Notes: generated by a model from the letters alone, not told the origin. A stretch of 17,354 bases of DNA from an uncultured delta proteobacterium (GCA_963712115.1 CAVQGX010000015.1:1-17354); one strand, 5' to 3'; shown: positions 1,694-17,354, counted from the stretch's first letter. Translations and numbers: made by a program.

Positions 1694-2149
1694 AATTTGA
1701 TTTGGTAAGGCTGTATCGGAGGTCGCAGCAAGCCATTCGTGAATTTTGCGGGCTACAGACTTTTGGTCGAATTTTCGGGTTGTGATGCAAGCCCTGGCCC
1801 TAACCGCTACTATACTCGGGCAGAAAAATGGAAAAATCCCTGGCCAATAGCAGGAGTTTCCTCAACTCTTGCTCTTTTGGGATTGGATGAAGTGCCTCAG
1901 ACATCCCCAATGAGCAACAAGTCACTGCCAAGGGCAGGGTAAACTGCCTAGCATTCGGTGCAACCAATGTGGGGCTTTTTTGCCTGCAATGCCTACAATC
2001 TGTGCCAGCTCTAAGCTCTGCTATTGATGATGGTAGCGACCATGGTTCTTTGCTGTGGAACTTACTCTGGCCATCGCACATAGTCACCAGGTCAATGAGG
2101 CAAGTCCCAAAGAGCAGAGGTGGTGAATTAGTTCTGGTAGTCTTATAAA

Positions 2150-2179
2150 TTGACAAGGGAGTCGGAAATAGTATAGATT
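2150..2179 (+). promoter_or_regulatory. Candidate sigma-70 promoter upstream of tpsA
   Basis: Perfect TTGACA (2150-2155), then TATAGA (16-bp spacer) or TAGATT (18-bp spacer), in AT-rich context about 640 bp before the tpsA start. Confidence 0.3.
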
Positions 2180-2819
2180 ATTTCAATAATTTTCCATATC
2201 TTTTCAGATATCTTTATAGTTGAGCAATTTCGGAACGTAAGAGAATACCCTGAGGTGTTCTTATTCAACTCTTAATAAAAGCCTCAGTCTCGCCGCGAGT
2301 AAATCTCGAGATGATTGGATGAGACACGCGATGAGACTTCTCAGCCTATGGATAATAGATAATCTCTTTGAACTTTACTCTAATTGAAGCAGGGTAGGAT
2401 ATAAACATCTGTCTAATTTAGCCTCTCTCTAGCTGTCTCTTTTACCACTGGCAATTAGTGTTTCAATCCAAAATCCAAAATGATTTTCCCCAAGGAGATG
2501 TTCCTTGACAGTAACTCTAATCTGGTCCTTGATAGGCTCAACTAGAAAACCCCCAAAGTGGGAAGGTAGCCCGAGAGTGCTGGCTCAATGTTACTGAGAA
2601 TTCCCATAGAACTACCAAACTTTAATCCTATGTTTTCTGATTCTGTTCTGGAGTATTTTAGCTTATCGGACTCCTGTGGTCTGAAGCAGGTTTAGTTGAA
2701 ACGAATGGTTTCTATAACAAGATCACCTTGAGGGAGATTAAGGTGTCTGCCGGCATACCCATGACCTCTCATTATAGTTTGTGAACAAAAAATAGCCCTA
2801 GAAGTCAAAGGAGAAGGAT

Positions 2820-5570
2820 ATGCTCTCCCAAAAAGCTCGTCAGTACCCAATTAGCATATTAAAGAAGTCACTTTTCATAAGTGCATTTCTGATTCAAATA
2901 ATCATACCCGCCCGCGGCCATGCCCAATCCGCGATAACCTCCGACGGCACCATGAATACTACGGTCACATTTGATCAAGGAAACTATACCATCAGCGATG
3001 GTACGATCAAAGGGAGCAACCAATTCCATAGCCTCGGTCGTTTCAATGTGCCGACTGAAGAAAGTGCGACTTTCACCGGCCCTCAGACAATTGAGAATAT
3101 TATCAGTAGGGTTACGGGGGGGGAGGTTTCGGAAATTGACGGCCGCATTAGCTCAGAGATCGACGGGGCGAATTTGTTTCTAGTTAATCCCACCGGAATC
3201 CTTTTTGGACCTAACGCCACTTTGGATGTAAAAGGGTCGTTCCATGCCAGCACAGCAGATTTCGTTAGGCTTTCGGACGGCGGGATTTTCTACGCCGACC
3301 CGGGGGGTAACAGTACGCTAACAGTGACCTCGCCGGCAGCTTTCGGGTTTCTCGATGGGAATCCGGCAGGGATTACCATCCAAGGAAGCGCGCTCGAGGT
3401 GCCAGAGGGCAAGACCTTGTCGGTTGTGGGCGGGGATATTGAGATTAAGGGTGATAGTTCTTTCGCTAGTGCAAGTCTAACTGCATTGAGTGGACAGATT
3501 AACATTGCGAGCGTTGCATCACCAGGCGAAGTCATTCCAAACACTTCGGGTGAGGCCCCAGACATACAAGTTGAGTCGTTTGAGCACCTTGGGGAGATTG
3601 CTTTGGCCCAGGGTGCACTTATCAACGCCGGCGGTGACAGTGGAGGCACCATTGTTATTCGAGGTGGACGTTTGATGATAGACAACGCGTTTGTTCTTGC
3701 TCACACGGGGGACGTTGATGGTTCCAGTACCGGGATCGACATTGATGTAACGGACAGTTTGACCATCGTCAATGGCGGTGGTCTGGGGGCAAACAGTTAC
3801 GGAGCTGGAGATGCTGGGGAAATAAGGATCAAGGCCGGGAGCATCAAAATGCTAGGAGTTCTTCAGACGCCGTACTACTCCTCCTCTTTTATCGGAAGCC
3901 AGGTACTGGCTTCAGGTGACAGCGGTGATATACGTATAGAAACCGGCAATCTGGAAATCCGGGATGCATCTGTTATTACCACCACTTCATGGAATAGCCA
4001 AGGGGGGAATGCCGGCAACTTGGAAGTGATTGCAGATAGCGTGCTCATCGCTGGACCTGAGAGTTCGCCCGACCCCTTTGTGACAGACTTTACAGGTATG
4101 GACACCTCATCAGGATGGGCGGCCGGAAACGGCGGAGATTTGAGCATCACTACCGATAATTTGACAATGACGAATAGAGCCTCACTGGATGGTAGCGCCT
4201 ACGGGCCAGGTCGAGGCGGTGACATGACAATAAATGCAGGCAATGTGGAGGTGCTAAAAGGCTCAGCCATGATTGCCAGTGCATTCGGTTCAGGGGATGG
4301 AGGAAATTGTACGGTGACCGCAGACCGAGTATTTATCTCTGGTGTAAGTCCTGAAATCTTTACAGATATAACTGGGACCCAATCACTATCACCCTCGGGT
4401 ATAGCTTCCCAAACCGGTCTTAATGGTGGAAGTGCTGGCGGAGTGAAGATTGTGGCGGACAGTTTGGAAATTTCCGACGGCGGCAGGCTATCTGTCGAAA
4501 CATTCGGTCCTGGGGACGGCGGCAGCGTCGAAGTGGAAGCCGGCAACGTGCTTATATCTGGGGTAAACCCTGATCTCAGAGACTTACTGATTAGTAACGA
4601 CGCTAATCCTAAGTACGCAGCCGCAAGCATTTTGTCCGGTTCAGGCAGTTTCTACTTGGGTGACGGAGCAACGGGACAAGGTGGTAATATTAAAATTAAG
4701 GCTGAAGACATTGAATTAAGCGATGGGGCGCTGATTTCCAGCGAGACCGAAACTCCGGGAGATGGGGGTTTTATAGAGATCGAAGCAGATAATGTGACAC
4801 TTTCCGGTGGAGCCTCGATTGCGTCTGAAAGCAGGGTAGCCTTCGCCACACTCACCGGAAAGGCCGGCAACATCTCGATCACAGCTAATGAAACATTCAG
4901 CAGTGACGACAGTTCTGTCATCACTTCCGCTGAGCAGGCAGAAGGTGGCAATATCACCATCACTTCCCGCGAGGTGCTACTGACCAATGGATCCTTGATC
5001 TCGGCCGAAAGCTCTGGCCCGGGCGACGCCGGCAATATCACTCTTACCGCCACCGATATGTTTCACATGAAAGACAGCTCCCTAACTACTGAGGCCAAAC
5101 GAGCTGATGGGGGTAATATAAAGATTAATACAGACTACATGGTCCATCTTGTTGGCAGTGAGATAACCGCTACTGTTGGCGGTGGCCCCGAGACTGTTGG
5201 AGGTAATATCAACATAGATCCGGAGTTCGTTATTCTGGATAATAGCAAAATCATCGCTAATGCCTTTGAGGGCAGGGGTGGAAACATACGAATCGTTGCC
5301 GGCACTTTTCTGGCCGACCCAAACAGCATAGTGGATGCATCGTCTGCCAAGGGCATCGATGGTACAGTTGAAATCCGTGCGCCGGTCAAGGACATAAGCC
5401 AGAAGCTTAAACCTTTACCGAGGAATGTATTACGGGCCAGAGACCTTATTCACGAACCATGCATTGCGCGGCTTTACGGGGGGGAATATAGCAGTTTTGT
5501 CGTCAGCGGGCGCGACGGCTTGCCACTCGAGCCAGGTGGGTTGCTACCCAGTCCGCTCCAGTTGGAATGA
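2820..5570 (+). CDS. TpsA: filamentous haemagglutinin N-terminal (TPS) domain beta-helical exoprotein, cyanobacterial type
   Basis: RBS AAAGGAG. Sec signal ends ARGHA|Q (residue 35). TPS motifs NQFHSLGRFNV, NIISRVTGG and NLFLVNPTGILFGPNA. About 16 G-x-[AG]-G-x-I-x-I beta-helix repeats. C-terminal C..SSFVVSGRDGLP..P motif. Confidence 0.93.
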   Translation: MLSQKARQYPISILKKSLFISAFLIQIIIPARGHAQSAITSDGTMNTTVTFDQGNYTISDGTIKGSNQFHSLGRFNVPTEESATFTGPQTIENIISRVTGGEVSEIDGRISSEIDGANLFLVNPTGILFGPNATLDVKGSFHASTADFVRLSDGGIFYADPGGNSTLTVTSPAAFGFLDGNPAGITIQGSALEVPEGKTLSVVGGDIEIKGDSSFASASLTALSGQINIASVASPGEVIPNTSGEAPDIQVESFEHLGEIALAQGALINAGGDSGGTIVIRGGRLMIDNAFVLAHTGDVDGSSTGIDIDVTDSLTIVNGGGLGANSYGAGDAGEIRIKAGSIKMLGVLQTPYYSSSFIGSQVLASGDSGDIRIETGNLEIRDASVITTTSWNSQGGNAGNLEVIADSVLIAGPESSPDPFVTDFTGMDTSSGWAAGNGGDLSITTDNLTMTNRASLDGSAYGPGRGGDMTINAGNVEVLKGSAMIASAFGSGDGGNCTVTADRVFISGVSPEIFTDITGTQSLSPSGIASQTGLNGGSAGGVKIVADSLEISDGGRLSVETFGPGDGGSVEVEAGNVLISGVNPDLRDLLISNDANPKYAAASILSGSGSFYLGDGATGQGGNIKIKAEDIELSDGALISSETETPGDGGFIEIEADNVTLSGGASIASESRVAFATLTGKAGNISITANETFSSDDSSVITSAEQAEGGNITITSREVLLTNGSLISAESSGPGDAGNITLTATDMFHMKDSSLTTEAKRADGGNIKINTDYMVHLVGSEITATVGGGPETVGGNINIDPEFVILDNSKIIANAFEGRGGNIRIVAGTFLADPNSIVDASSAKGIDGTVEIRAPVKDISQKLKPLPRNVLRARDLIHEPCIARLYGGEYSSFVVSGRDGLPLEPGGLLPSPLQLE

Positions 5571-5678
5571 GGAATTCGGGCCAGTAGTTCTTTTGCCCTC
5601 ATGGATCTTAACTATTTTGCGCGAAGAGAGAATTACAGTACCTAAAGCCGCAGGCAAGACGTACGCGTCGATGAGAGT

Positions 5679-7469
5679 ATGAGAAAAATGGACTATGATC
5701 TGCACCAAGTGATTTGCGGCTTTTTAACTATTACGAATAGTAAAGGAGAAAAAATCAGTGATCGGCACATAATCTCCTGGCATGGTAGACTTGCGCAGTC
5801 CCTTTTTTTAGTGCTTTTTATCGCTTTAATATTCTCTCCTCCAGTCCCCGCACAGGTAGAACGGCAAGAACCCCTCGACCCACCAACGAGCACGGGGTTG
5901 CCACTGGCTTCCGATGACTCTGGACCTGAGACAATGCAGTTACCCCTTGAGCGTGTCTTTGTGCGGAAGATAGTTTTAACTGGAAGTACAGTTTTTTCAG
6001 AGGATGAGCTAGCTAAAGTTACAACTCCCTATGTCAATCGAGAGCTTACCAGCGAGGATTTAGAGGAACTTCGGCGTGCCCTAACGATCTATTATATTGA
6101 AAGAGGGTATGTGAACTCCGGCGCAATAATCCCTGACCAGAACATAAGAGATGGCCTAATCAGGTTTCATATCATCGAGGGTGAATTGACAAACATTGAG
6201 CTGGAGGGGAACAAATGGTTTAGGTCAAGCTACATAGAAAATCGTCTTGCCCTAGGAGTCGAGCCGCCTTTGAACATAAGTCCTTTACAGAAACGGCTTC
6301 AGCTCTTGCAGCAAGATGAGCGGATACAGCGGCTGAACGCTGAGCTAAGGCCTGGCGTGAAACCAGGCGAAAGTGTCCTGAAAGTAGGTGTTAAAGAAAA
6401 GATGCCCTACAAAACCTCGGTAGTTTTCGATAATTACCAGTCCCCGTCTGTGGGAGCTGAAAATATCAAGCTTAACATCGCCCCTCAGAACTTGACTGGA
6501 AATGGCGACATCCTAGATCTCACCGTGGGAGGTTCGGAAGGTCTCAAGCCTTTATTAGAAGCTCGCTATTCTATCCCCGTAACTGCCTACGATACGACTA
6601 TGGCTTTGCGGTACAAGCATACTCACTATGAGGTTGTGGAAAGACCTTTTGATGATCTGGATATTGAGAGTGATACGGACTATTACACGATCGGTCTCTA
6701 TCATCCATTCTACCGTAGTTTAAATCATAAATTCACCATGGGACTCGTCGGAGAGCATATTCGGAACAAGACGTACCTGTTGGGCGAACCGTTTTCATTT
6801 TCACCAGGTGCTGAAAACGGTAAATATAACCAGACAGCTTTGCGATTCATTCAGGAATACACCTATCGCAGCCAGAGGCAGGCGATAGCGGCCCGGTCTC
6901 GTTTCACCTTGGGCATTGATGCACTCGACGCAACGACCAGTGAAGACTCTTCGGTCCCGGACAGTGAGTTTTTTGCCTGGTTGGGTCAATTTCAGTGGGC
7001 TGGGATTTGGGGAGACCTTGGCATTGAGACGATCTTTCGAACCGATGTACAATTAGTAAATGATTCTCTCTTGGCGGTCGAATTGATTTCAACTGGTGGA
7101 AGATATAGTGTCCGTGGGTATCGCGAGAGCACCTTTGTGAGGGACAATGCTGTAATTGCTCAATTTGAAACCCGCCTTCCTTTATTTCGAAATAGATGGT
7201 GGGCAGATTACATACAGCTTGTACCTTTTGTGGATTACGGCCGTGGATGGAACGAGGATCTTCCCACCCGCGGCCGCAAGACAATTTACAGTGCTGGAAT
7301 AGGTCTCAGGTGGAGGGCGACTTGGGAAATATCTCCTACTGAGAAATTGAGGCCACGCTTCGAGATCTATTGGGGGCATAAGTTTAAAGATGTTGACTAC
7401 CCGTCGGACGAAGATGATCTTCAGGACGATGGCATTCACTTACAGTTTGCTATCTCAGCAGGAATCTAG
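5679..7469 (+). CDS. TpsB: ShlB/FhaC/HecB family two-partner secretion outer-membrane transporter
   Basis: Signal peptide (...PPVPA|Q; true start may be downstream). POTRA motifs (GSTVFSEDEL...LTIYYIERGYVNSGA...IIEG). Alternating beta-barrel strands. Conserved loop-6 motif GGRYSVRGYRE. Immediately downstream of TpsA. Confidence 0.93.
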   Translation: MRKMDYDLHQVICGFLTITNSKGEKISDRHIISWHGRLAQSLFLVLFIALIFSPPVPAQVERQEPLDPPTSTGLPLASDDSGPETMQLPLERVFVRKIVLTGSTVFSEDELAKVTTPYVNRELTSEDLEELRRALTIYYIERGYVNSGAIIPDQNIRDGLIRFHIIEGELTNIELEGNKWFRSSYIENRLALGVEPPLNISPLQKRLQLLQQDERIQRLNAELRPGVKPGESVLKVGVKEKMPYKTSVVFDNYQSPSVGAENIKLNIAPQNLTGNGDILDLTVGGSEGLKPLLEARYSIPVTAYDTTMALRYKHTHYEVVERPFDDLDIESDTDYYTIGLYHPFYRSLNHKFTMGLVGEHIRNKTYLLGEPFSFSPGAENGKYNQTALRFIQEYTYRSQRQAIAARSRFTLGIDALDATTSEDSSVPDSEFFAWLGQFQWAGIWGDLGIETIFRTDVQLVNDSLLAVELISTGGRYSVRGYRESTFVRDNAVIAQFETRLPLFRNRWWADYIQLVPFVDYGRGWNEDLPTRGRKTIYSAGIGLRWRATWEISPTEKLRPRFEIYWGHKFKDVDYPSDEDDLQDDGIHLQFAISAGI

Positions 7470-7506
7470 TTCTCGGAGAGGCTCCGGAGCGATCGGCAGG
7501 AAATTA

Positions 7507-8346
7507 TTATTCACCTGAGCTACGCTGTTTAAGATCATATTGGGCTATTTGCTCTAAGCCCACCTGCTCAAGCAAAGAAGCCCTCTGTTGCCTATAGAGT
7601 GTGTCATCCGGCGCGGTTTCTATCAGATCAGAGACTGCAGAAAAAGCGTCATACCAAAGCCCCGCCTCCGCATAAATATGTGCAGCTCTCGTCCTATCTG
7701 TCTCGGCCAACTTCGCTCTTAAGTCCTGAGTGAACTCAACGCGTTCAACCGCTCCCCAGGCAAGGATGTCCTTTGAACGACGGTCATAATCGGGGACCAT
7801 TGCTACGAACCATTTGTAGTTAACACCTGGCTGGAGACTTACATCAAAGTCAGCTAATCGTATGCGCTGTATCCCAGGCTGTTTCGGGGAAGGGATGCGT
7901 TTTTCTAAAATAGGATATATAGCCTGATCCAAGATAAGGGTAAACTCGATAGAATGGGGCACAGTTTCCGCGAGAAACCAGTACAAGACAGGTTGTGCTT
8001 GAACTGTCTGACCAGCATGATCTGGCGAAAGTACGACCAACATGGAAGGAAATTCATCGAAAATACCCCTGCTACCACCTGCTATCCGACCAACCGGAGC
8101 GCCACGCAAAGGAGGTCTGTAAACTGGCATACTAATTGGTGTTACCGGTCCTTTTTTCTTTTCTCCCTCTGAGGGTAGAAATGGCTCCCTACCCTTAAAA
8201 TCCTGAGAATCACTAGTTGCGGGGGTTTCTACTTTTGCTCCTTGCTTAGCTCTTTCTGTTTGGTCACTTGCTTGAACCATCGGCAAGGACAGAAGTAAAC
8301 TAAAACCGCCAGTTAGTATCAAAGCTAAAGCAGTGGCGTTTTTCAT
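7507..8346 (-). CDS. Exported DUF928 domain protein
   Basis: Signal peptide ends MVQA. Characteristic YRPPLRGAPVGRIAGGSRG, QPVLYWF, LQPGVNYKW and YAEAGLWYDA...LLEQVGL motifs. Starts 3 bp after the cyclase stop. Confidence 0.88.
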   Translation of the reverse strand: MKNATALALILTGGFSLLLSLPMVQASDQTERAKQGAKVETPATSDSQDFKGREPFLPSEGEKKKGPVTPISMPVYRPPLRGAPVGRIAGGSRGIFDEFPSMLVVLSPDHAGQTVQAQPVLYWFLAETVPHSIEFTLILDQAIYPILEKRIPSPKQPGIQRIRLADFDVSLQPGVNYKWFVAMVPDYDRRSKDILAWGAVERVEFTQDLRAKLAETDRTRAAHIYAEAGLWYDAFSAVSDLIETAPDDTLYRQQRASLLEQVGLEQIAQYDLKQRSSGE

Positions 8347-8349
8347 CGC

Positions 8350-10281
8350 TCAACTCCTGGGGAATAGAGCCTCGAGGTTATCCTTTTTCCTAAAAAGCTG
8401 GTAAATGTTAATCTTCTGGTCTTTCCCTTTTAGGACTCCCTCTCCGACCCTGCACGTCTTGAATTGGTTACCGAGGTATTTCAGCGTTGATTCGCCAATT
8501 AGAATGCGGCAAAGGCTCTCGCGGGCAAAATCTTTGTCATAGCTTTCAAGCCTTGCGGCAGTGTTTACAGTATCTCCCACAGTAGTATACTTCATTCTCC
8601 GTGAACTCCCCAAGGCACCGGCAACTACCGGTCCTGTGAAAATTCCAATCCGGATGCCTACATTGGGCAAACGTTGCTCTTGCCAAAGACTGTTGAGGCG
8701 AAGAATCTCACTTTCCATAGCAAGAGCACAATTTACTGCGTTTGTGGCGTCTCTGCCAATTTCAGCTTGACTAGTTCGGGGCAAGGGTACACCGAAGTTT
8801 GCCTTTATGCTATCACCTGCATAGTCATCAACCACACCCCCATGGTCCATTATCAACTGAGTCATGGAATCCATGTAAGTGTTTAGCCAGTCAATGAGGG
8901 ACTGTGGGTCCATTCTCTCGGATACTGAGGTGAATCCTTTAAGGTCTGAAAACAAGACGGTGACCATCAACTCTTGAGAACGCGGTCTGCCATCGTTAAG
9001 AAATTGGTCGCGCTGACGCCAAATTGACTCAGCAACCTCTGGCGAAACGTGTCTGGAAAACAGTCCCATGAGGATTTCTCTTTGCCTCTTCTCTAGGCTA
9101 GATACATAAGCAGTTACAGAAACAGCGGAGATCAACCAGACCGCAGCCGGAGGAACTAGGGGAATCCACCATCCTTGAAGGAAGGCTAGAAATGAGCTGA
9201 AGAAAATAATGATCAGGCCAGTTAAGCCAAAAACAAAGAAGCGCCAGAGTGAACCAGTTAACAGTCCCGTTGCACTACCCATAACAGCCCAGAGCAAAAT
9301 CCAAAGAGTTTCCTGCCTCTCCTTCAGAGTTACCATAGGTGAACTTCCATCAATGGCATGTCTGAGTAATTGGCTTACAATGTTAGCGTGCAAAGTAACC
9401 CCTTGAACCTGCTGGGCATCTCTGAAGCCGCGACTGCGAGGAGTGTAAAAAAAGTCTTTCACGCTTTCGGCCATGAATCCAACAAGAACAACTTTGTCCT
9501 TGATCGCAGCTTTTTCAATCTCATCAGATAGGAGAGATTGTAAGGAATAAATGGGGAAAGACCGTCTGTCATCCTTAAAATCAAGCAAAAACTGGTATCC
9601 TCTAGCATCAGCATCGATATACCCGCCATCGCTCTCTTCAAAAGGGGGTATAGTAGTTTGGCCGATCCTTAGATATTGTGGGCTAGACGCATCAGATCGA
9701 GGCACAATACCCTCAGACCGTAAATAGAGCAGTGTCAGTCTTAAGGCAAATGAATAAAATGCCGTTTCGCCATCATCGAGAAAAAGCAGACCGCGACGCA
9801 CAATGCCCCCAGGATCGACAATTACATCATTAAAACCAACCTGTTCCGTATTTTTTAGTATTGGAGGTGGTTGTACTCCCTCATCACCGAACTTGGTCAC
9901 CACTACAATGTTTTGGTTTTCAAGCAGAATTGATTCAAGCTTTTTACTCCCTGGGGGCACAGATATATCCCGGAAGACATCCAGACCAATAGCACGAGAT
10001 TTGTACTGGAGAAGCGTCGCCAACGTCCTCGCCAGAGTAGCATCTGTCAGAGGCCAGTGTCCTTCTCGAGAAATATCCTCTTCGGTTATTGCGATAATTG
10101 CCACGCGTGGATCTGATCGAGAAAGGGTTGGCCTTAATCGGATAAACCAGTCGTATGCTGCAAGCTCGAGGAATTCCAAATTACCGCTGCTGCGCAACCC
10201 AATTATGATGAGAAAGGCAATGGCACTCACGAATAACCCACAGACGGTTGATGATGACAGGAGGTTACGTAAGGATCTCAT
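8350..10281 (-). CDS. CHASE2-domain membrane class III nucleotide (adenylate/guanylate) cyclase
   Basis: N-terminal TM. CHASE2 motifs LELAAYDWF, AIGLDVFRD, VGFNDVIVDPGGIVRR and GVTLHANIVSQ. Three TMs. Cyclase motifs LFSDLKGFT (D446), YAGD (D490), IRIGIFTG and GDTVNTAARLE (N573, R577). Confidence 0.93.
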   Translation of the reverse strand: MRSLRNLLSSSTVCGLFVSAIAFLIIIGLRSSGNLEFLELAAYDWFIRLRPTLSRSDPRVAIIAITEEDISREGHWPLTDATLARTLATLLQYKSRAIGLDVFRDISVPPGSKKLESILLENQNIVVVTKFGDEGVQPPPILKNTEQVGFNDVIVDPGGIVRRGLLFLDDGETAFYSFALRLTLLYLRSEGIVPRSDASSPQYLRIGQTTIPPFEESDGGYIDADARGYQFLLDFKDDRRSFPIYSLQSLLSDEIEKAAIKDKVVLVGFMAESVKDFFYTPRSRGFRDAQQVQGVTLHANIVSQLLRHAIDGSSPMVTLKERQETLWILLWAVMGSATGLLTGSLWRFFVFGLTGLIIIFFSSFLAFLQGWWIPLVPPAAVWLISAVSVTAYVSSLEKRQREILMGLFSRHVSPEVAESIWRQRDQFLNDGRPRSQELMVTVLFSDLKGFTSVSERMDPQSLIDWLNTYMDSMTQLIMDHGGVVDDYAGDSIKANFGVPLPRTSQAEIGRDATNAVNCALAMESEILRLNSLWQEQRLPNVGIRIGIFTGPVVAGALGSSRRMKYTTVGDTVNTAARLESYDKDFARESLCRILIGESTLKYLGNQFKTCRVGEGVLKGKDQKINIYQLFRKKDNLEALFPRS

Positions 10282-10296
10282 GACACAGTCTAAGTC

Positions 10297-12687
10297 TTAC
10301 AACCAATTGTTGATCAACAGGAAAGGTGACCAGTAACCCGGATGCTCGTAGCGTCTATCATTCAGCATCCTAAGCTGTGCACGTTGGAGCGCAACTGCTT
10401 TAGAAATCCCTGGTCCCTGCAGTTGTCTGTAGAACTCTCCGACCAAAGCCGCAGTAGCCAAATCATTTATATGCCAAAGCGTTGCAAGGGCACTTCTAGC
10501 ACCTGCTTTGACTGCGACCCCGGCGAGGCCAAGGGCAGCACGATCATCACCTGTAGCGGTATCGCAGGCGCTGAGAGTCAATAACTCTAAAGGCTCTTCT
10601 CGAAACCGAAGTAGTCCCACATATTGATCAAGCCGATCCAAAGTCACTTTATCGTCGAAAGTGAGGATAAAAGTTCTTTCAACGTCATTGTCGAACTGCG
10701 CGTGGGAAGCTATGTGCACCAGAGCAAATTGTTCATCAGCCAAAGCCTTTCTCAGGCTGGAGGTCAAAAATTCTTCATTGACAAGTAGCTTGCTGGCGTA
10801 AAAACTTTGAATGGTCTGGAGCTCTGAGGACACATAAGGCAGCGGGGGGAATCCTTGTGTGGATTCGGTGAGCCCAACCAGCAGAATTTTCAGAGCTTCT
10901 CCGCTGATTGGACGAGGATCGGTAAGACTGAGTCCAGGTGTAACCGCCACTGCGTATTTGTTGATGAGGAACTGCTCGCCATCATGAAGCGCCGCCATGG
11001 GAACCGTACGGAGGGGCCCGTCTGGCACGAAAACTAAAGTATCGACGTTGATAGATGCTAATTCGGGTTCGAAAGGTCTAATCAACCAGTCATAAAGCTT
11101 CTGCGCGTGGGGAAGAAACTCCCGTGTGGTGCGTTTTTCGAGTTTTTTGCGGAACTCGATAGCCTCTTTATTAATGGTGTCTCCTTGGATGTGTACTGAG
11201 AATTTCTTTAGCCCGGTCGGCAGGCTTACAAGTATTTCAGTTCTGTCAGGCAGTAATATAGGATACACTACAACAGCTGTCTGGGAAACGATATCAAGTG
11301 TTTGAATTCCAGTTTGGGCAGCGCCCACGCAGTCGTCCTGGAAGTACTCCCGTAACTCAAAGACCTTTTGCACTTCCACCGCCTCGCGCGCCTCGAACAG
11401 GTAAGTATCATATTCCTCACTTTCGTGAAGTGCGTCAGCACGATGCAAAAGAAGATCAACCAGCTCGAAATACATAGGGCCCACGGACTCACGGAAAGAC
11501 AATTGAGTTCTTCCATAGCATCTAGTCATTTCCTGGCGAATGGATTGAACAGTATAGACAGCTCGTTTATAAACAGATATTGCCTCATCTGTTTTCCCCA
11601 ACTTTTTGAGCAAACGGCCAGCTTGCCACTGCCATTTGTAGAGTGATTCTGGTGCGTTGACCTGTTGGGCTGCAAAGATCGCTCTGTTTGTTAGCTGCAA
11701 GGCCTCCTGATAACGGCGTTCGTCTTCATGAAGTTTGCCTAGATAGCCATAGGCGTATGAGGCTGTGCGGGGATTATCGATGGTTTCAGCTAAATCGACG
11801 GCTTCAATGAGAGCCATGTAAGCAGAGTGCAGAAGGTCACCATCAGATTCAACAAGGTATGGACGAAGATTCTGATAAGCCAAACCAATATTTATTAGCC
11901 TAAAGATCTTATCTTGCGACTGATCCAACCTTTGAATCTGATCTGAAGCCTTGTTAAGAAGGGCCTTCGCCTCTCCGTACTCTTCATCTTGTATTGAGGC
12001 CATAGCAGCATTGGTAAGGGCCGTAACCGCTAATGGGTGATTACCTATTGCATCGGCCAGTTCTTTACTCTCTTTATAGGCATCAATGGCTGCCTTGTAT
12101 TCCTTCTGTAATGAGTATAGGTTGCCTAAGTTGTTGAGGATTACCGCTGTTAGGTTGGAATCCTGCAATTCCCTCGCCATGGCCAGACCCTCGTTCAAAT
12201 ATTGATCTGCCAAGTGACTAGGACCTATGGCTATGTATACATTGCCCAGACTGCCCAAAACTGTTGCTACCAGCTTCCGATCACCTAAACTTTGGGCAAG
12301 AAGCTGAGCTGACTCCAGAGTTTCTAAGGCATCATCGTATTCACCAACGAATCCATATGCCCCGGAAAGCTTGATTAGCACTCGAATTTGCTCAGTGGGC
12401 TTTCCCTGCAGCTCGTAAAGCCTGGAGGCCTCTTTCCAGCTCGAGATAGCGACTTCGAAATCGCCTCGCAAGAACGCGCGATAGCCCTTTTCCACCTGTT
12501 CCTCTGGAGACATGCCTTCTGTAACAGAAGGGGTTTTTATTATTGTCTGATCCTTGGTGGAGGTCCTAACCGAACAGCCGGAGATAAGTATCAAAACAAT
12601 GCAGATCTTAAGAATAAAACTGAAGATGCAGCATCTTGATTGCTGATTACCTACAGGCGGAATGTGGTAGGATCTGATCGTAAACAT
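10297..12687 (-). CDS. Lipoprotein TPR-repeat CHAT-domain (caspase/HetF clan) cysteine protease
   Basis: RBS AGGAAGG. Lipobox LISG-C38. Many TPRs (e.g. LNNLGNLY, YGYLGKLHE, WQWQAGRL). CHAT motifs LVFVPDGPLRTVPMAAL, HIASHA (H662), LSACDTA (C708), ATLWHIND and HPGYWSPF. Confidence 0.93.
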   Translation of the reverse strand: MFTIRSYHIPPVGNQQSRCCIFSFILKICIVLILISGCSVRTSTKDQTIIKTPSVTEGMSPEEQVEKGYRAFLRGDFEVAISSWKEASRLYELQGKPTEQIRVLIKLSGAYGFVGEYDDALETLESAQLLAQSLGDRKLVATVLGSLGNVYIAIGPSHLADQYLNEGLAMARELQDSNLTAVILNNLGNLYSLQKEYKAAIDAYKESKELADAIGNHPLAVTALTNAAMASIQDEEYGEAKALLNKASDQIQRLDQSQDKIFRLINIGLAYQNLRPYLVESDGDLLHSAYMALIEAVDLAETIDNPRTASYAYGYLGKLHEDERRYQEALQLTNRAIFAAQQVNAPESLYKWQWQAGRLLKKLGKTDEAISVYKRAVYTVQSIRQEMTRCYGRTQLSFRESVGPMYFELVDLLLHRADALHESEEYDTYLFEAREAVEVQKVFELREYFQDDCVGAAQTGIQTLDIVSQTAVVVYPILLPDRTEILVSLPTGLKKFSVHIQGDTINKEAIEFRKKLEKRTTREFLPHAQKLYDWLIRPFEPELASINVDTLVFVPDGPLRTVPMAALHDGEQFLINKYAVAVTPGLSLTDPRPISGEALKILLVGLTESTQGFPPLPYVSSELQTIQSFYASKLLVNEEFLTSSLRKALADEQFALVHIASHAQFDNDVERTFILTFDDKVTLDRLDQYVGLLRFREEPLELLTLSACDTATGDDRAALGLAGVAVKAGARSALATLWHINDLATAALVGEFYRQLQGPGISKAVALQRAQLRMLNDRRYEHPGYWSPFLLINNWL

Positions 12688-13416
12688 TATAGAATCCTTC
12701 CTGTTTGGTTAGATAGAACTACCGAAAAACTACGAGGTTGGATTTTTCATCGCCAAGGGTTCTTCACTTCCTCTGCAGCCAGCGATTTTGAGCAGAAGGG
12801 TGATCAACTAAGGGCTACAAAAATAGATTTTAAGGGTTTGGGCAGGGAAATCACTAACTACTATGCATTGTTTCACCATACACATAAGCTTTAGATTGAG
12901 TCAAGATCGAAAAAAACCTAAAGTGTGCAGCCTGTTCTCACACATTTCTACATTGCAGTCCACATCCATTATTCCATATCGGACTAATCATATCTGTAAG
13001 CGGTTAGTTTTTCAGGATTCTTTCACATTTCGCTGACAACACTGGGATATTGGACCGGTGGAACATATTGGAGTGGTTTTAGGATTAATCACAACTACCG
13101 GGGGTTTGGATAATATTTACTTTTCAAAAACTCGGCGGGGTTTCGGCTTGGCTCTTGTGTTTTCAAGTTTACTCTGCAGGGAGTTAGATTACATACTCCA
13201 CATTTTGTCTCTTATGATCCGCCCACAAAACGATGAGTCGCCTCGCTTTCCATCTCGTTGGCAAGGGATTGTCGACTTAACCCAACCTCCTTGCCCCACA
13301 GGTCAATGTGTGGTAATTTTTGAAAAATACGTTAGTAAGACTTATGATACTCTAACCAATAGGCTTGCAGCTTCCAACCTGACTACATGACTTAAGTATC
13401 AACCGGTGCATCTGTC

Positions 13417-13968
13417 ATGCTTCGAAGTTTGTCGAAAAGGTTCTGTTGTTTTTGGAACCAATTTGCCCGTTGTGGTGGGAGAATCTCTCTCATCCTCTCA
13501 ATGCTCGTCTTTGCCATAGTCTTGTTTTTCCTCCTGAGCACGCTAAGCTATGCTCTTGACGTTACTCTCGTCTGGGATGCTGGTTATCCAAATGATAACC
13601 TCTTGGGCTATATGCTTCACTATAAGGAAGGAGCGCCTGGTCCGCCATACGATGGGACGGAGGCTAATGAGGGGGAGTCGCCCATTGATATAGGACTTTC
13701 CACCACCTTTACACTCACTGGATTAGACGAGACTGAAACCTATTTCTTCAGGCTAACTGCTTACAATGATGATGCTGAAAGTGGTTACTCCAATGAGGTC
13801 TGTGTAAATTGCCCCACCAAGACTAATATGCAAAATGGAGGCGGAGACGGTGGTTGTTTTATTGCTACGGCAGCATCTGGATCAGCAATGGAGTCACACC
13901 TTGTATCGCTGAAAATGCGGTTTTTAATGCCACCACATTTTATTATCCTCTTGAGGAAGCATTTATAA
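13417..13968 (+). CDS. Secreted fibronectin type III domain protein with a truncated CFI-box-CTERM-like tail
   Basis: Signal peptide ...LSYA|LDVTLVWD. FN3 motifs GYMLHY, FTLTGLDETETYFFRLTAYN and ESGYSNEV. Gly linker followed by GGCFIATAA. Start may be a downstream Met. Confidence 0.8.
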   Translation: MLRSLSKRFCCFWNQFARCGGRISLILSMLVFAIVLFFLLSTLSYALDVTLVWDAGYPNDNLLGYMLHYKEGAPGPPYDGTEANEGESPIDIGLSTTFTLTGLDETETYFFRLTAYNDDAESGYSNEVCVNCPTKTNMQNGGGDGGCFIATAASGSAMESHLVSLKMRFLMPPHFIILLRKHL

Positions 13969-14702: not shown

Positions 14703-15152
14703 TCAGTTCTCTTTCTTACGTTCCCATCCGCTCCAACCCTCTGTCATGATATAGATGCTACTATATCCCATCATTTGAAGAAGAGAAGCGACTTCAGATG
14801 GGCTAGTGTCCTTCGTATCAGTCCCATAGAGAATAATCTTGGCCTTCATTGGTATTTGTTGACTAAATCTTGCGAGCATTCCATATATGATTTCGGCCGG
14901 AAAATTAAGTGAACCAGAGATATGAGATATGTTAAAGGAATCAGCGGGTCGTAGGTCAATAAAAAAGGCCTCTCTATTATTTAAGAGGTCTTGAGCCTCT
15001 GATATGGAAATTTGTTTGATTTGATCTTTCTTAAATAGATCATCACTTGGAGATGGAAATAAAGATATACCATCGGAACGGATAAAATTGACAGCTAATC
15101 CAACTATGAGTGCTAACAGAGATACTGCAAAGGCTTGCTTGAGTATATACAT
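14703..15152 (-). CDS. Membrane-anchored rhodanese-like domain protein lacking the catalytic Cys
   Basis: N-terminal TM. FIDLRPADSFNISHISGSLNFP and IYIMTEGWSGW are rhodanese motifs. The active-site position reads ILYG rather than YC. 24 bp from the MauE-like gene. Confidence 0.82.
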   Translation of the reverse strand: MYILKQAFAVSLLALIVGLAVNFIRSDGISLFPSPSDDLFKKDQIKQISISEAQDLLNNREAFFIDLRPADSFNISHISGSLNFPAEIIYGMLARFSQQIPMKAKIILYGTDTKDTSPSEVASLLQMMGYSSIYIMTEGWSGWERKKEN

Positions 15153-15525
15153 AATTATTAAACATATAGTTAAAATTTACTCTTATCAATCAGGAATAAT
15201 GCTGCAGTGGCGCGCTCGTCCTCTTCGCGCTCGCTCCGCTCAGTCCTCATCATTTGGGGGGAGAATCCCCAGGTTACAAAGTCTCGCGACATTGATTTGT
15301 GAAATATCCGAGTTTAGTATAAGTTGGCAAAGATTGTAAGGATTTTATATGCTTTGCTAGATGGACAGATTCGGCAAGAGATTAGAGGTCGAGTTGGGCA
15401 GATAAATAATTTATGCCAACCATACTCCCGGTCATCTTCTGGAAGCACAAAATACTGTATGGGGGCACTAGCCCCATTGAATTTCCCGAACCCAAGCCTA
15501 TTCAACAAGACGAGCTAAATCATTT

Positions 15526-15765
15526 TCAAGTATCAGCCCCTGTATCTAATCTTGGGTGTGGGGAAACAATAGCTACTGAAGGCTTACGAGTGCTTAACTG
15601 ACTCTGTTCTGCAAAATCTCTAGGTTCGTTCTGATGCCTTGCTAGTTCTTCTCTTAAACGCTTATTTTCACGCATTAGGCCGGTTACTCGCCCCGCTGCT
15701 ATCATACTGGCCAATATGAAGCCTATTGATCCACCAAGTACAAACATGATCAGCCAGACGTGCAT
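15526..15765 (-). CDS. Small single-pass membrane protein with a coiled coil
   Basis: GAGGAG RBS upstream. N-terminal TM, then a coiled-coil-like RENKRLREELAR segment. Sigma-54 promoter directly upstream. Confidence 0.7.
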   Translation of the reverse strand: MHVWLIMFVLGGSIGFILASMIAAGRVTGLMRENKRLREELARHQNEPRDFAEQSQLSTRKPSVAIVSPHPRLDTGADT

Positions 15766-15837: not shown

Positions 15838-16130
15838 TATGTGGTATGGCTATAAATTCCTGTCCCGTCAAAGATGCCATACTAACTAGGAAATAATACG
15901 AATTCAACATTTTTTTGACAATCAGGGGGAGAGTGAGTTGGGCAGCATGGAGTCAGAGGACTACGCCGTTGGAGGTTGGAGGCAAGAACCCGGAGGTCAG
16001 AGGACAGAAGAGGATTTCGAATTTGGAATTGCGCGATCGCCTCGCATTGCGTCCGCCATCGGCTTCGCCTTCAGGCGATTGCCGGGCGGGCTCGCATGGC
16101 GGGCAGGCCCACGCAGATAGGCGCAGACCT

Positions 16131-16446: not shown

Positions 16447-16632
16447 TTACTTTTTGTGGAGTCTTTTCCTACTATAGCCTGCCAGACCAACCAGACAAAT
16501 GCCCAGCAGCAACATCTGGGCAGGCTCGGAAATGGACCTATGCGGAACAATATCCAGTCCTAGTTGGCCTGCGACCGCCATAGTACTTATAAGTATTAGG
16601 GCAACGAGTAGTAATCTTATGATTATTTTCAT
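16447..16632 (-). CDS. Minimal PEP-CTERM sorting-signal protein (61 aa)
   Basis: Signal peptide MKIIIRLLLVALILISTMAVA, a linker of about 12 aa, then ISEPAQMLLLGICLVGLAGYSRKRLHKK (PEP-like motif, TM, basic tail). Followed by a terminator. Confidence 0.8.
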   Translation of the reverse strand: MKIIIRLLLVALILISTMAVAGQLGLDIVPHRSISEPAQMLLLGICLVGLAGYSRKRLHKK

Positions 16633-16906
16633 CTCACTCTAGGCAAACCAGTCAAAAGATCAGTGAAATCCTAATTAATAGTTCCAAATACTAAGGTACT
16701 AGTAAGTGAAAACTTCTACTGGCAAACCGACCAATCCAGTGCAGAAAGAAAAGATTGTCTCTCCTTGAGAATGGTTGCGGGAACTTGAACTGTTCTTAGT
16801 TTAGGACAACCTGGCTGAATTTGTAAATAGGAAGCATGCATGATTTTGACTTTAGTACCAGTATAATACCAGTTAGATCAGTGGTCGGGCCAAGGAGAGG
16901 AAAAGG

Positions 16907-17208
16907 CAGAGGTCAGAGGTCAGAGGTCGGACGTCGGAGGGCAGAAGAGAATTGCGGATTTGGAATTCAGATTGCGAAGTTATCGCTTTGCGATTGTCCG
17001 TAGTTCCACCTTAGGCTGATCAGTTGCCCGTTGCAAATGAATGGAGCATGGGGAAAGACAGCGGGAGGCAGGCAGCGGACAGCCCCATTATGTTGGAGGG
17101 TGGAGCCAGTCTTAAGAGACGCGGAGATGGGGAGAAACGGAGACGCGGAGGAGAAAGACAGAGGGCGGAGGACAGTTTCCACTAGGCACTAGGGACTATG
17201 CTCTAGGC
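16907..17208. repeat. Mosaic of degenerate 7- and 8-nt tandem repeat tracts
   Basis: CAGAGGT x3 plus variants (16907-16948), GAATTGC-like heptamers (16949-16977), AGACGCGG-type octamers x4 (17117-17148), ACTAGGC-type heptamers x4 (17181-17208). Confidence 0.7.
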
Positions 17209-17354
17209 ACAGTAAAGGCGACACGAGGAGACGGAGATGCGGCGAGAGGGATTTAGGGCATCAGGCTTCGCCGTCATTAGGTCACTACGCTGCGCTGTCA
17301 TTTGTTGTAATAGGTAAAGCAGAAAGTTTTAAATTGAGGATTTCGGATTGCGCC

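Follow-up and report, generated by a model that had tools for sequence, protein, structure and literature searches.

The closest studied system to the locus described here is NsrA/CyaK of S. meliloti (the CyaD1, CyaD2 and Clr pathway), in which, according to the accessible text of two reports, a peptidic plant signal needs the outer-membrane beta-barrel receptor NsrA to activate CyaK (PMC7529298, PMC13001267). The nsrA gene, whose product has 1200 amino acids (aa), overlaps cyaK, and our Pfam searches found FecR (residues 66-160) and TPR repeats (residues 378-587) in NsrA and CHASE2 and Guanylate_cyc domains in CyaK. The C-terminal half of NsrA gave no ShlB match in these searches and a weak match to OMP_b-brl_3 (0.032). 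Two other described loci combine a CHASE2 receptor gene with the gene of an exported partner. MtxA of Magnetospirillum gryphiswaldense (MGR_0208) is, in the available part of its description, an exported protein consisting of an immunoglobulin (Ig)-like domain and a five-helix TPR-like domain, and a conserved gene for a CHASE2 adenylate cyclase comes after its own (PMC4439547). The Burkholderia 'BiofilmReg' operon has a LysM-FecR protein gene directly before the gene of a CHASE2 histidine kinase, and the factors that CHASE2 recognises are not known, as far as the available text of that source goes (PMC5192318). Here we describe a five-gene locus of an uncultured delta proteobacterium (GCA_963712115.1, CAVQGX010000015.1) that encodes a two-partner secretion (TPS) exoprotein (TpsA), its transporter (TpsB), an exported TPR-CHAT protease, a CHASE2 receptor with a class III nucleotide cyclase domain, and a DUF928 protein. 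The window that we analysed is the entire contig C15, 17,354 bp long, of a 4.9-Mb assembly in 70 contigs. We tentatively favour the view that these genes make up a horizontally mobile envelope module, which would couple a two-partner-secreted surface filament to cyclic-nucleotide synthesis through an outside-in chain.

The locus consists of two convergent groups of genes. The plus strand carries tpsA (2820-5570, an open reading frame [ORF] of 916 aa) and, 108 bp downstream, tpsB (5679-7469, 596 aa). The minus strand carries the genes of the TPR-CHAT protease (10297-12687, 796 aa), the CHASE2 cyclase (8350-10281, 643 aa) and the DUF928 protein (7507-8346, 279 aa), with 15 bp (10282-10296) between the protease and cyclase genes and 3 bp (8347-8349) between the cyclase and DUF928 genes. 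A spacer of 37 bp (7470-7506) separates the two convergent stop codons. An earlier note on this DNA had reported these five ORFs with their families and the gaps of 15, 3 and 37 bp, all of which our ORF calling and Pfam searches reproduced. It had also held that every product is targeted to the envelope, and a hydropathy scan of the translations located export or membrane signals in all five.

The five-gene grouping is non-random. In Pfam searches of all six frames of the 4.9-Mb genome, DUF928, TPS and ShlB each had a single match over the cut-off, every one of them inside the module block, while CHASE2 had four matches and CHAT five, one of each inside the block. For the comparison with other genomes, 21 DUF928 homologues were aligned and one genome per prokaryote species was scanned, which gave 241 relatives, and the best 80 loci were kept. 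We called the ORFs of these loci and then ran jackhmmer searches seeded by the window's own domains; the detection profiles thus grew from the window's proteins, and the own-genome counts serve as the formal comparison. Among the 80 loci, 27 had flanks of 9 kb or more on either side of DUF928 and were regarded as complete. CHASE2 was found in 24/27 complete loci, the cyclase domain in 23/27, CHAT in 26/27, TpsB in 24/27, the TPS domain in 24/27 and the TpsA tail described below in 25/27, and CHASE2, CHAT, TpsB and TpsA stood together beside DUF928 in 21/27. The claim that the five genes form one module, which the earlier note had made from the window, therefore survived this co-occurrence check.

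The arrangement of the genes was also conserved. The commonest order, with all five genes on one strand, was TpsA-TpsB-CHAT-CHASE2 cyclase-DUF928 (11 loci); in the second commonest, which is that of the window, the TPS pair converges on the DUF928 end. The order of CHAT, CHASE2 cyclase and DUF928 was retained across the loci, and in 34 of the 60 testable loci a CHASE2 gene on the same strand ended between -200 and +500 bp upstream of DUF928, many of the pairs overlapping by 4 bp. Six complete loci departed from the full set. Three of them (L026, L070 and L080) had TpsA, TpsB, CHAT and one to three copies of DUF928 without CHASE2. L029 had CHASE2 and DUF928 without TPS or CHAT, L025 was without TpsB, and L009, apparently fragmented, had CHASE2 and CHAT only. 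Two further loci with incomplete flanks (L056 and L059) showed CHASE2 and DUF928 without CHAT or TPS matches. Because three complete loci keep DUF928 in the absence of CHASE2, DUF928 is tied to the secretion/protease half as well. It is the element common to both halves and looks like a coupling protein, which fits the linking role that had been proposed for it; an adaptor serving either half would fit the same distribution.

The genomes of the 80 loci were labelled as Desulfobacterales, other delta proteobacteria, Zixibacteria, Nitrospirota, Nitrospinota, Verrucomicrobiota, Beta- and Gammaproteobacteria, Methylomirabilota/Rokubacteria, Acidobacteriota and Myxococcota, a few of these labels being unlikely to be right for the metagenome-assembled genomes concerned. 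The statement that these families co-occur was upheld, but the cyanobacteria and other filamentous bacteria named as their setting proved too narrow, as carriers of this subfamily span many phyla. A CHASE2-DUF928 neighbourhood in Nostoc punctiforme is on record (PMC5587647). DUF928 was found in none of the 40 relatives searched (17 belonging to its genus, a further 4 to its family and a further 19 to its class; completeness 61-100%), and the module looks most like an accessory island that was acquired horizontally. We found no published description of the five-gene module in the literature searched, whose coverage stopped short of subscription journals and supplements, and a search of the same literature for the CHAT domain together with CHASE2 or hemagglutinin returned nothing; among the papers listed on two-partner secretion, none mentions a CHAT domain.

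The CHASE2 cyclase has a CHASE2 match at residues 22-336 (PF05226, 2.2e-60), the domain extending over about residues 34-337 (nucleotides [nt] 9271-10182), and a cyclase domain at residues 439-629 (nt 8395-8967; Guanylate_cyc, 5.7e-24). Hydrophobic segments lie at residues 6-35 and about 338-400, a layout in which CHASE2 faces outward and the cyclase domain the cytoplasm. The predicted architecture is that of a CHASE2 transmembrane receptor. By alignment with CyaB (3R5G) and Cya2 (2W01), the metal-binding residues are D446 and D490 and the transition-state residues N573 and R577; among 52 cyclase orthologues, D446, D490 and R577 were conserved in 52/52 and N573 in 51/52. Guided by the same two alignments, we take positions 486 and 566 to be the specificity pair. 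Canonical pairs consist of Lys with Asp or Thr for ATP and of Glu with Cys or Gly for GTP. The window cyclase has neither and carries Asp486 and Thr566, Asp taking the place of the Lys found in adenylate cyclases and of the Glu found in guanylate cyclases (Glu in Cya2). The pair was D/T in 24 of the 52 orthologues, K/T in 8, Q/V in 6, K/A in 3, and S/T and R/N in 2 each; rarer combinations were Q/A (2), D/G (2), E/T (1), R/A (1) and Q/T (1). At position 486 alone the counts were D 26, K 11, Q 9, R 3, S 2 and E 1. Since Asp486 is noncanonical and the pair varies among orthologues, the product nucleotide is not predictable from sequence, and different copies of the module may make different nucleotides.

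A model of the CHASE2 domain was of high quality (predicted local distance difference test score [pLDDT] 87.8, predicted template modelling score [pTM] 0.89). A Foldseek search of the PDB with this model gave no match at E of 0.001 or lower (best 0.09), and a wide VIA search gave at best Z 5.2, with a solute-binding protein and a Mur ligase domain; neither search of the model supported a caspase-like fold for CHASE2. Complex prediction of CHASE2 (residues 34-337) with DUF928 (residues 68-279), run without controls, scored 0.42, 0.00 and 0.00, values that we count as evidence neither for binding nor against it.

In the protease, TPR repeats (about residues 68-378, nt 11554-12486; TPR_12, 1.5e-30) precede a CHAT domain (residues 527-792, nt 10312-11109; PF12770, 5.9e-60). 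His662 (nt 10702-10704) and Cys708 (nt 10564-10566), which we take to be the catalytic dyad of the CHAT domain, were invariant in 43/43 orthologues of at least 600 aa. The residue cited as C708 in the earlier note is thus the conserved CHAT cysteine. The protease dyad is intact, and the cyclase retains its metal and transition-state residues, so that both predicted enzymes kept the catalytic residues ascribed to them. In the window the N-terminus of the protease carries a lipobox, I-S-G-C38. The N-terminus was hydrophobic in every orthologue, and a cysteine follows the hydrophobic stretch in relatives labelled Desulfobacula, Desulfobacterium, Desulfobacteraceae, Zixibacteria and 'delta proteobacterium' (lipobox-like examples are L001, L002, L005, L006, L011, L014 and L040), while many other orthologues have an Ala-rich end of the signal-peptidase-I type. 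The TPR-CHAT protein is accordingly a predicted exported protease, and a predicted lipoprotein in this genome. By sequence its TPR half is closest to the TPRs of LGN/Pins (E about 1e-20), which bind extended peptides; a phmmer search of PDB sequences with the protease returned TPR proteins only and no CHAT structure.

TpsA, a predicted secreted beta-helix exoprotein, starts with a signal peptide, its single hydrophobic stretch, which is followed by a TPS domain at residues 39-278 (nt 2934-3653; PF05860, 2.2e-41) and then by Gly/Asp-rich repeats. The NCBIfam model TIGR01901 (adhes_NPXG, the NPXG haemagglutinin N-terminal domain) also matched (3.1e-21). TpsB likewise has one hydrophobic stretch, at its N-terminus, and matched ShlB (PF03865, 8.5e-28) and POTRA_2 (PF08479, 1e-21), as in Omp85-family outer-membrane transporters. 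With a TPS exoprotein beside a POTRA/ShlB transporter, and with export predicted, the pair has the domain composition of a two-partner secretion (type Vb) system. TpsA ends in a conserved C-terminal tail (5397-5567 on the plus strand, about residues 860-916), for which homologues were detected in 39 loci. The tail comprises about 55-57 residues with the consensus LLRExCxAR..G..SSFVVxGRxGLPxEPGG, and Cys881 (nt 5460-5462) was the sole invariant column in an alignment of 34 tails. Two forms could be distinguished. In the long-tail form cysteines lie about 60-96 residues and 2 residues before the C-terminus, and in 11 listed proteins these were the only cysteines after the signal region; TpsA proteins of this form, of 900-1300 aa with just two cysteines, were observed in L022, L023, L026, L028, L032, L043, L055, L062, L075, L077 and others. 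This cysteine pair suggests a terminal disulfide loop. The short-tail form, to which the window's TpsA belongs, has one cysteine 33-44 residues before the end, which was the only cysteine after the signal region in six proteins, and so retains just the first of the two cysteines of the long-tail form.

The DUF928 protein matched PF06051 with 8.5e-38 (130 bits against a cut-off of 26), and Pfam at E up to 0.01 lists no other family for it. Its single hydrophobic stretch is at the N-terminus, and the protein is ordered as a signal peptide, a variable, charged and disordered linker, a conserved peptide, and a folded core at residues 102-279. The peptide is the Arg/Gly-rich PVYRPPLRGAPVGRIAGGSRG (8065-8127 on the minus strand, residues 74-94). 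Across the 21 aligned sequences its consensus was PVYxPPLRGAPxGRxAGGxRG, with P78, R81, G82, P84, R87, G90, R93 and G94 invariant. In an AlphaFold2 model, residues 103-279 are predicted with confidence (core pLDDT above 85, most block means 83-96), and the values are below 50 for residues 13-69 and 82-103. The N-terminal segment of DUF928 and the tail of TpsA are probably two conserved, flexible peptides. A motif common to both was considered and rejected, hhalign giving a probability of 0.15%. In the model the DUF928 core is an Ig-like sandwich packed against five TPR-like helices, and its top structural match was the C-terminal domain of MtxA (PDB 4Z29; Foldseek E 7e-6, probability 1.00). 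VIA-align superposed 158/169 residues of the two, including both subdomains, with Z 10.8 and a root-mean-square deviation of 4.7, while the next matches had Z of 8.6 or lower and covered one subdomain each, either a generic TPR or an FN3 fold. An ESM Atlas feature match (score 0.81) led to a cluster in which 14-15% of the members carry MtxA families, which we regard as a lead only.

The favoured outside-in chain could run through these parts as follows. The TpsA helix would be displayed at the surface with its C-terminal tail in or below the TpsB pore, for which HMW1 and FhaB offer precedents, and a change in the surface filament would expose the tail to the periplasmic TPR-CHAT protease or withdraw it. 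The TPR groove of the protease may bind an extended peptide, and the protease may then cut either the TpsA tail or the flexible N-terminal segment of DUF928. CHASE2 would read the state of DUF928 and switch the cytoplasmic cyclase dimer, and the cyclic nucleotide would act on cNMP-binding proteins such as those encoded beside the module in other genomes. A more specific relay would start from contact or damage reported by the periplasmic Cys tail, pass through the TPR-CHAT protease to a processed DUF928, or its Arg/Gly peptide, as the CHASE2 ligand, and end in nucleotide synthesis; in this detailed form we consider it unlikely. With Asp at the specificity position, the nucleotide of such a relay need not be either cyclic AMP or cyclic GMP.

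In favour of the outside-in chain are the conserved neighbourhood, the close spacing of the CHASE2 cyclase and DUF928 genes, the MtxA-like fold of DUF928, the NsrA/CyaK precedent, the LysM-FecR and CHASE2 kinase pair in this genome, the intact catalytic residues, the cNMP-binding neighbours in related loci and the occurrence of DUF928 with either half. Several observations weigh against it. Gene order gives no direction of signalling and fits a chain running outward just as well, and the interactions, the cleavage and the nucleotide product of the relay are steps that we infer. With no motif common to the TpsA tail and the DUF928 peptide, there is no indication that one protease recognises the same site in both. 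CHAT proteases are not uniform in their P1 preference, and the conserved arginines therefore do not mark a cleavage site. Since the 80 loci were seeded with motifs of this DUF928 subfamily and are its best matches, the frequencies given above describe that subfamily alone. A search for fusions of DUF928 to the other families found none, the one longer protein (490 aa) containing DUF928 only, which is weak evidence. A profile of DUF928 had no relevant match among PDB sequences and did not hit 4Z29, the similarity to MtxA being structural only, and deletion of mtxA had no visible phenotype under standard conditions in the available part of the report (PMC4439547). As for the output, the window contains no cNMP-binding gene. 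The cNMP_binding family was present in 22 of 60 scanned flanking proteins, a preselected cluster without a background rate. Such proteins are encoded in at least 15 of the 80 loci, 8 of them complete, and the gene directly follows DUF928 in L013 and L078. These neighbours are only suggestive as readers of the output.

The main alternative, possible if somewhat doubtful, reverses the direction of the chain. The CHASE2 cyclase and DUF928 would sense an unrelated cue from the periplasm or the environment, the nucleotide would control the expression or secretion of TpsA, and the protease would mature, release or degrade TpsA, a role like that of the proteases acting on FhaB; the genes would then cluster since a regulator and its target travel together. 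The conserved neighbourhood fits this account equally well, TpsA could be processed or retained at its conserved tail, and L029, with CHASE2 and DUF928 but without TPS or CHAT, shows that the sensor pair is able to exist by itself. The title of one paper names cyclic di-GMP as controlling a two-partner-secreted toxin (PMC8472254). On the other hand, the window encodes no transcription factor, and the three complete loci that keep DUF928, TpsA, TpsB and CHAT without CHASE2 are unexpected if DUF928 belongs to the sensor only. The signal of CyaK, moreover, arrives through an outer-membrane protein in the accessible text of the S. meliloti reports, which favours the outside-in direction (PMC7529298, PMC13001267).

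The same three loci (L026, L070 and L080) lend themselves to another account, in which DUF928 belongs mainly with secretion and proteolysis. It would serve the TPR-CHAT protease or the TpsA tail in the periplasm as a chaperone, inhibitor or adaptor, and the CHASE2 cyclase would be a passenger, frequent yet separable, that makes no direct contact with DUF928. A core that joins two protein-binding folds, Ig-like and TPR, would suit such a role. We nevertheless judge it improbable. Nowhere in the module is the spacing as tight and as regular as between the CHASE2 cyclase and DUF928 genes, with 3 bp in the window and 4-bp overlaps in many loci, and L029, L056 and L059 have CHASE2 and DUF928 without CHAT or TPS matches (the flanks of L056 and L059 being incomplete). 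The structural relative MtxA is itself paired with a CHASE2 cyclase, and neither TPS nor CHAT is reported with it in the available text (PMC4439547).

Whether the locus could be a conflict system, for contact-dependent competition or for defence, was also considered. TpsA would be a delivered effector or adhesin, the protease an effector or activator, and the cyclase would make an alarm nucleotide. The distribution is patchy and looks horizontal, with DUF928 in 0/40 relatives and close copies in many phyla; caspase-like proteases occur in bacterial conflict systems, as the available part of one paper describes (PMC8195603); and the cyclase domain matches the Pycsar PycC models (best 9.7e-27). 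However, such matches are expected of any class III cyclase, as the Guanylate_cyc match (5.7e-24) illustrates, and the pairing that defines Pycsar is absent, the window having no cNMP-binding effector and the cyclase being a CHASE2 receptor. PADLOC, which has no models for TpsA, TpsB or DUF928, returned generic PycC and TPR matches and one weak BovA match (3.1e-4). TpsA has no variable toxin domain, only the 57-residue conserved tail, and no candidate immunity gene was seen. The protease is predicted to be exported, unlike the systems in the accessible text of that paper, which are cytoplasmic (PMC8195603). We consider this explanation very improbable. That the genes are chance neighbours or lie on a mis-binned contig, without functional unity, is hardly credible, for although the contig is only 17 kb long, the bin has an estimated 5.99% contamination and DUF928 occurs in 0/40 relatives, all five families are present in 21/27 complete loci of many phyla, composition is within the range of the genome, and the right-flank repeats occur in 12/12 same-genus genomes searched.

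The composition and the flanks of the contig are as follows. Its G + C content is 0.468 against 0.49 for the genome (standard deviation 0.018), and its tetranucleotide distance is at the 82nd percentile of 256 chunks, both within the genome's range. Short dispersed repeats of about 50-220 nt occupy the right flank at 15464-15532, 15980-16107, 16688-16871, 16929-17148 and 17228-17354. One of them is 96% identical to part of contig C14, and such repeats were found on many contigs of the genome and in all 12 same-genus genomes searched but in none of 8 genomes of other families. The contig thus belongs to this genus, since the repeats at its right end are genus-wide and absent from other families, and mis-binning was rejected on composition and on these repeats. 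ORFs with Arg/Gly-rich translations that were called across the dispersed repeats are probably spurious. The left flank has imperfect inverted repeats at 204-404 (arms of 41 nt, 78% complementary) and 547-788 (26 nt, 81%), in a region to which no gene was assigned. Between the module and the right end are an ORF for a 183-aa fn3-domain protein with a hydrophobic segment at its N-terminus (13417-13968) and an ORF of 61 aa (16447-16632) that matches PEP-CTERM weakly (E 0.001, below the Pfam cut-off). No family of direct repeats flanks the module. Over 2000-13400, a promoter scan gave 17 sites where 13.5 were expected and a terminator scan 11 where 10.6 were expected, without excess in either case, and neither scan located a site inside the 37-bp spacer.

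Other CHASE2 receptors of the genome and the neighbours of the module elsewhere provided further observations. On contig C31 (L084:5256-8482) a CHASE2 Ser/Thr kinase gene overlaps an exported LysM-FecR gene (335 aa) by 4 bp, and a PilZ gene lies just downstream. On contig C2 (L082:5165-9488) a CHASE2 cyclase adjoins a PilZ/cNMP-binding/Ser/Thr kinase fusion, which is a candidate cyclic nucleotide reader. On contig C19 (L083:4957-10189) a CHASE2 cyclase lies downstream of a divergent polysaccharide deacetylase and a CtpB-like S41 PDZ protease, the latter being another exported protease beside a CHASE2 receptor. Fusions of a cNMP-binding domain to rhodanese stand beside the module at L078:10832-11755 and L029:14508-15827. 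The window itself encodes a membrane-anchored rhodanese without a cNMP-binding domain (14703-15152), about 2 kb from the protease gene and adjoining a MauE/DoxX gene; its likeness to these neighbours may be coincidence. Glutaminase proteins occur near the module in L029, L044, L061 and L069, fused to a cNMP-binding domain in the first three, and the glutaminase ORF of L069 is cut at the contig end.

Each half of the locus has counterparts among known systems. The secretion pair resembles FhaB/FhaC of Bordetella and HMW1/HMW1B of Haemophilus, each composed of a TPS exoprotein and a POTRA/ShlB transporter. In FhaB and HMW1 a C-terminal segment stays in the periplasm or tethers the exoprotein, and it is handled by proteases. 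The cysteine pair of the long-tail TpsA form recalls the C-terminal disulfide loop of HMW1, whereas the window's TpsA has a single tail cysteine, and the FhaB and HMW1 systems are not known to include a CHAT protease, DUF928 or a CHASE2 cyclase. The protease resembles Csx29 of Craspase (type III-E CRISPR, gRAMP), in which TPR repeats are likewise followed by a CHAT domain, and Csx29 is a switchable signal relay, not a degradative enzyme. The likeness is one of architecture only: Csx29 is cytoplasmic and RNA-guided, and the module's protease is predicted to be exported and has no CRISPR genes near it. The EACC2-caspase proteins in the accessible part of PMC8195603, some of which are fused to CHASE2, are cytoplasmic and constitute a different system (PMC8195603).

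The sensor half is closer to the loci with which we began. As in BiofilmReg, a small exported protein is encoded beside a CHASE2 receptor, and the pair on contig C31 of this genome matches that operon; the module differs from it in having DUF928 instead of FecR and a cyclase instead of a kinase, with a secretion pair and a protease in addition. CHASE2 receptors repeatedly adjoin an exported partner, which is FecR, MtxA or DUF928. With MtxA the DUF928 protein shares a core that superposes on both subdomains and a neighbouring CHASE2 cyclase gene, but MtxA belongs to another Pfam family, has a different N-terminal region and showed no detectable sequence similarity, and the available text on MtxA reports no TPS pair or CHAT protease (PMC4439547). 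If the outside-in chain is true, DUF928, which is little mentioned in the literature searched, and MtxA would each gain a function, and a caspase-fold protease would act as a signalling enzyme outside the cytoplasm. The recurrence of the module across phyla means that a result obtained in one carrier would probably apply to many.

NsrA/CyaK is the closest comparison. Both the module and this system have an outer-membrane barrel, TPR repeats, a small beta-rich domain, a CHASE2 cyclase and a translationally coupled partner gene. They differ in that NsrA is one polypeptide and the module distributes these parts over four separate proteins, and in that NsrA has no ShlB-type barrel or protease; the secreted filament and the caspase-fold protease are additions of the module. 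NsrA showed no significant similarity to the TPR-CHAT protein, the match having E 0.055 and being confined to the TPR region, and the FecR domain of NsrA had no match in any of the five module proteins; the analogy is architectural only. Within that limit, NsrA/CyaK points to a protein signal that reaches CHASE2 via an outer-membrane protein, and the module would represent the same logic in separate, tractable parts, namely a filament displayed by its pore, an exported protease for which the active-site mutant is clear, and a small periplasmic protein that has a structural relative of solved structure.

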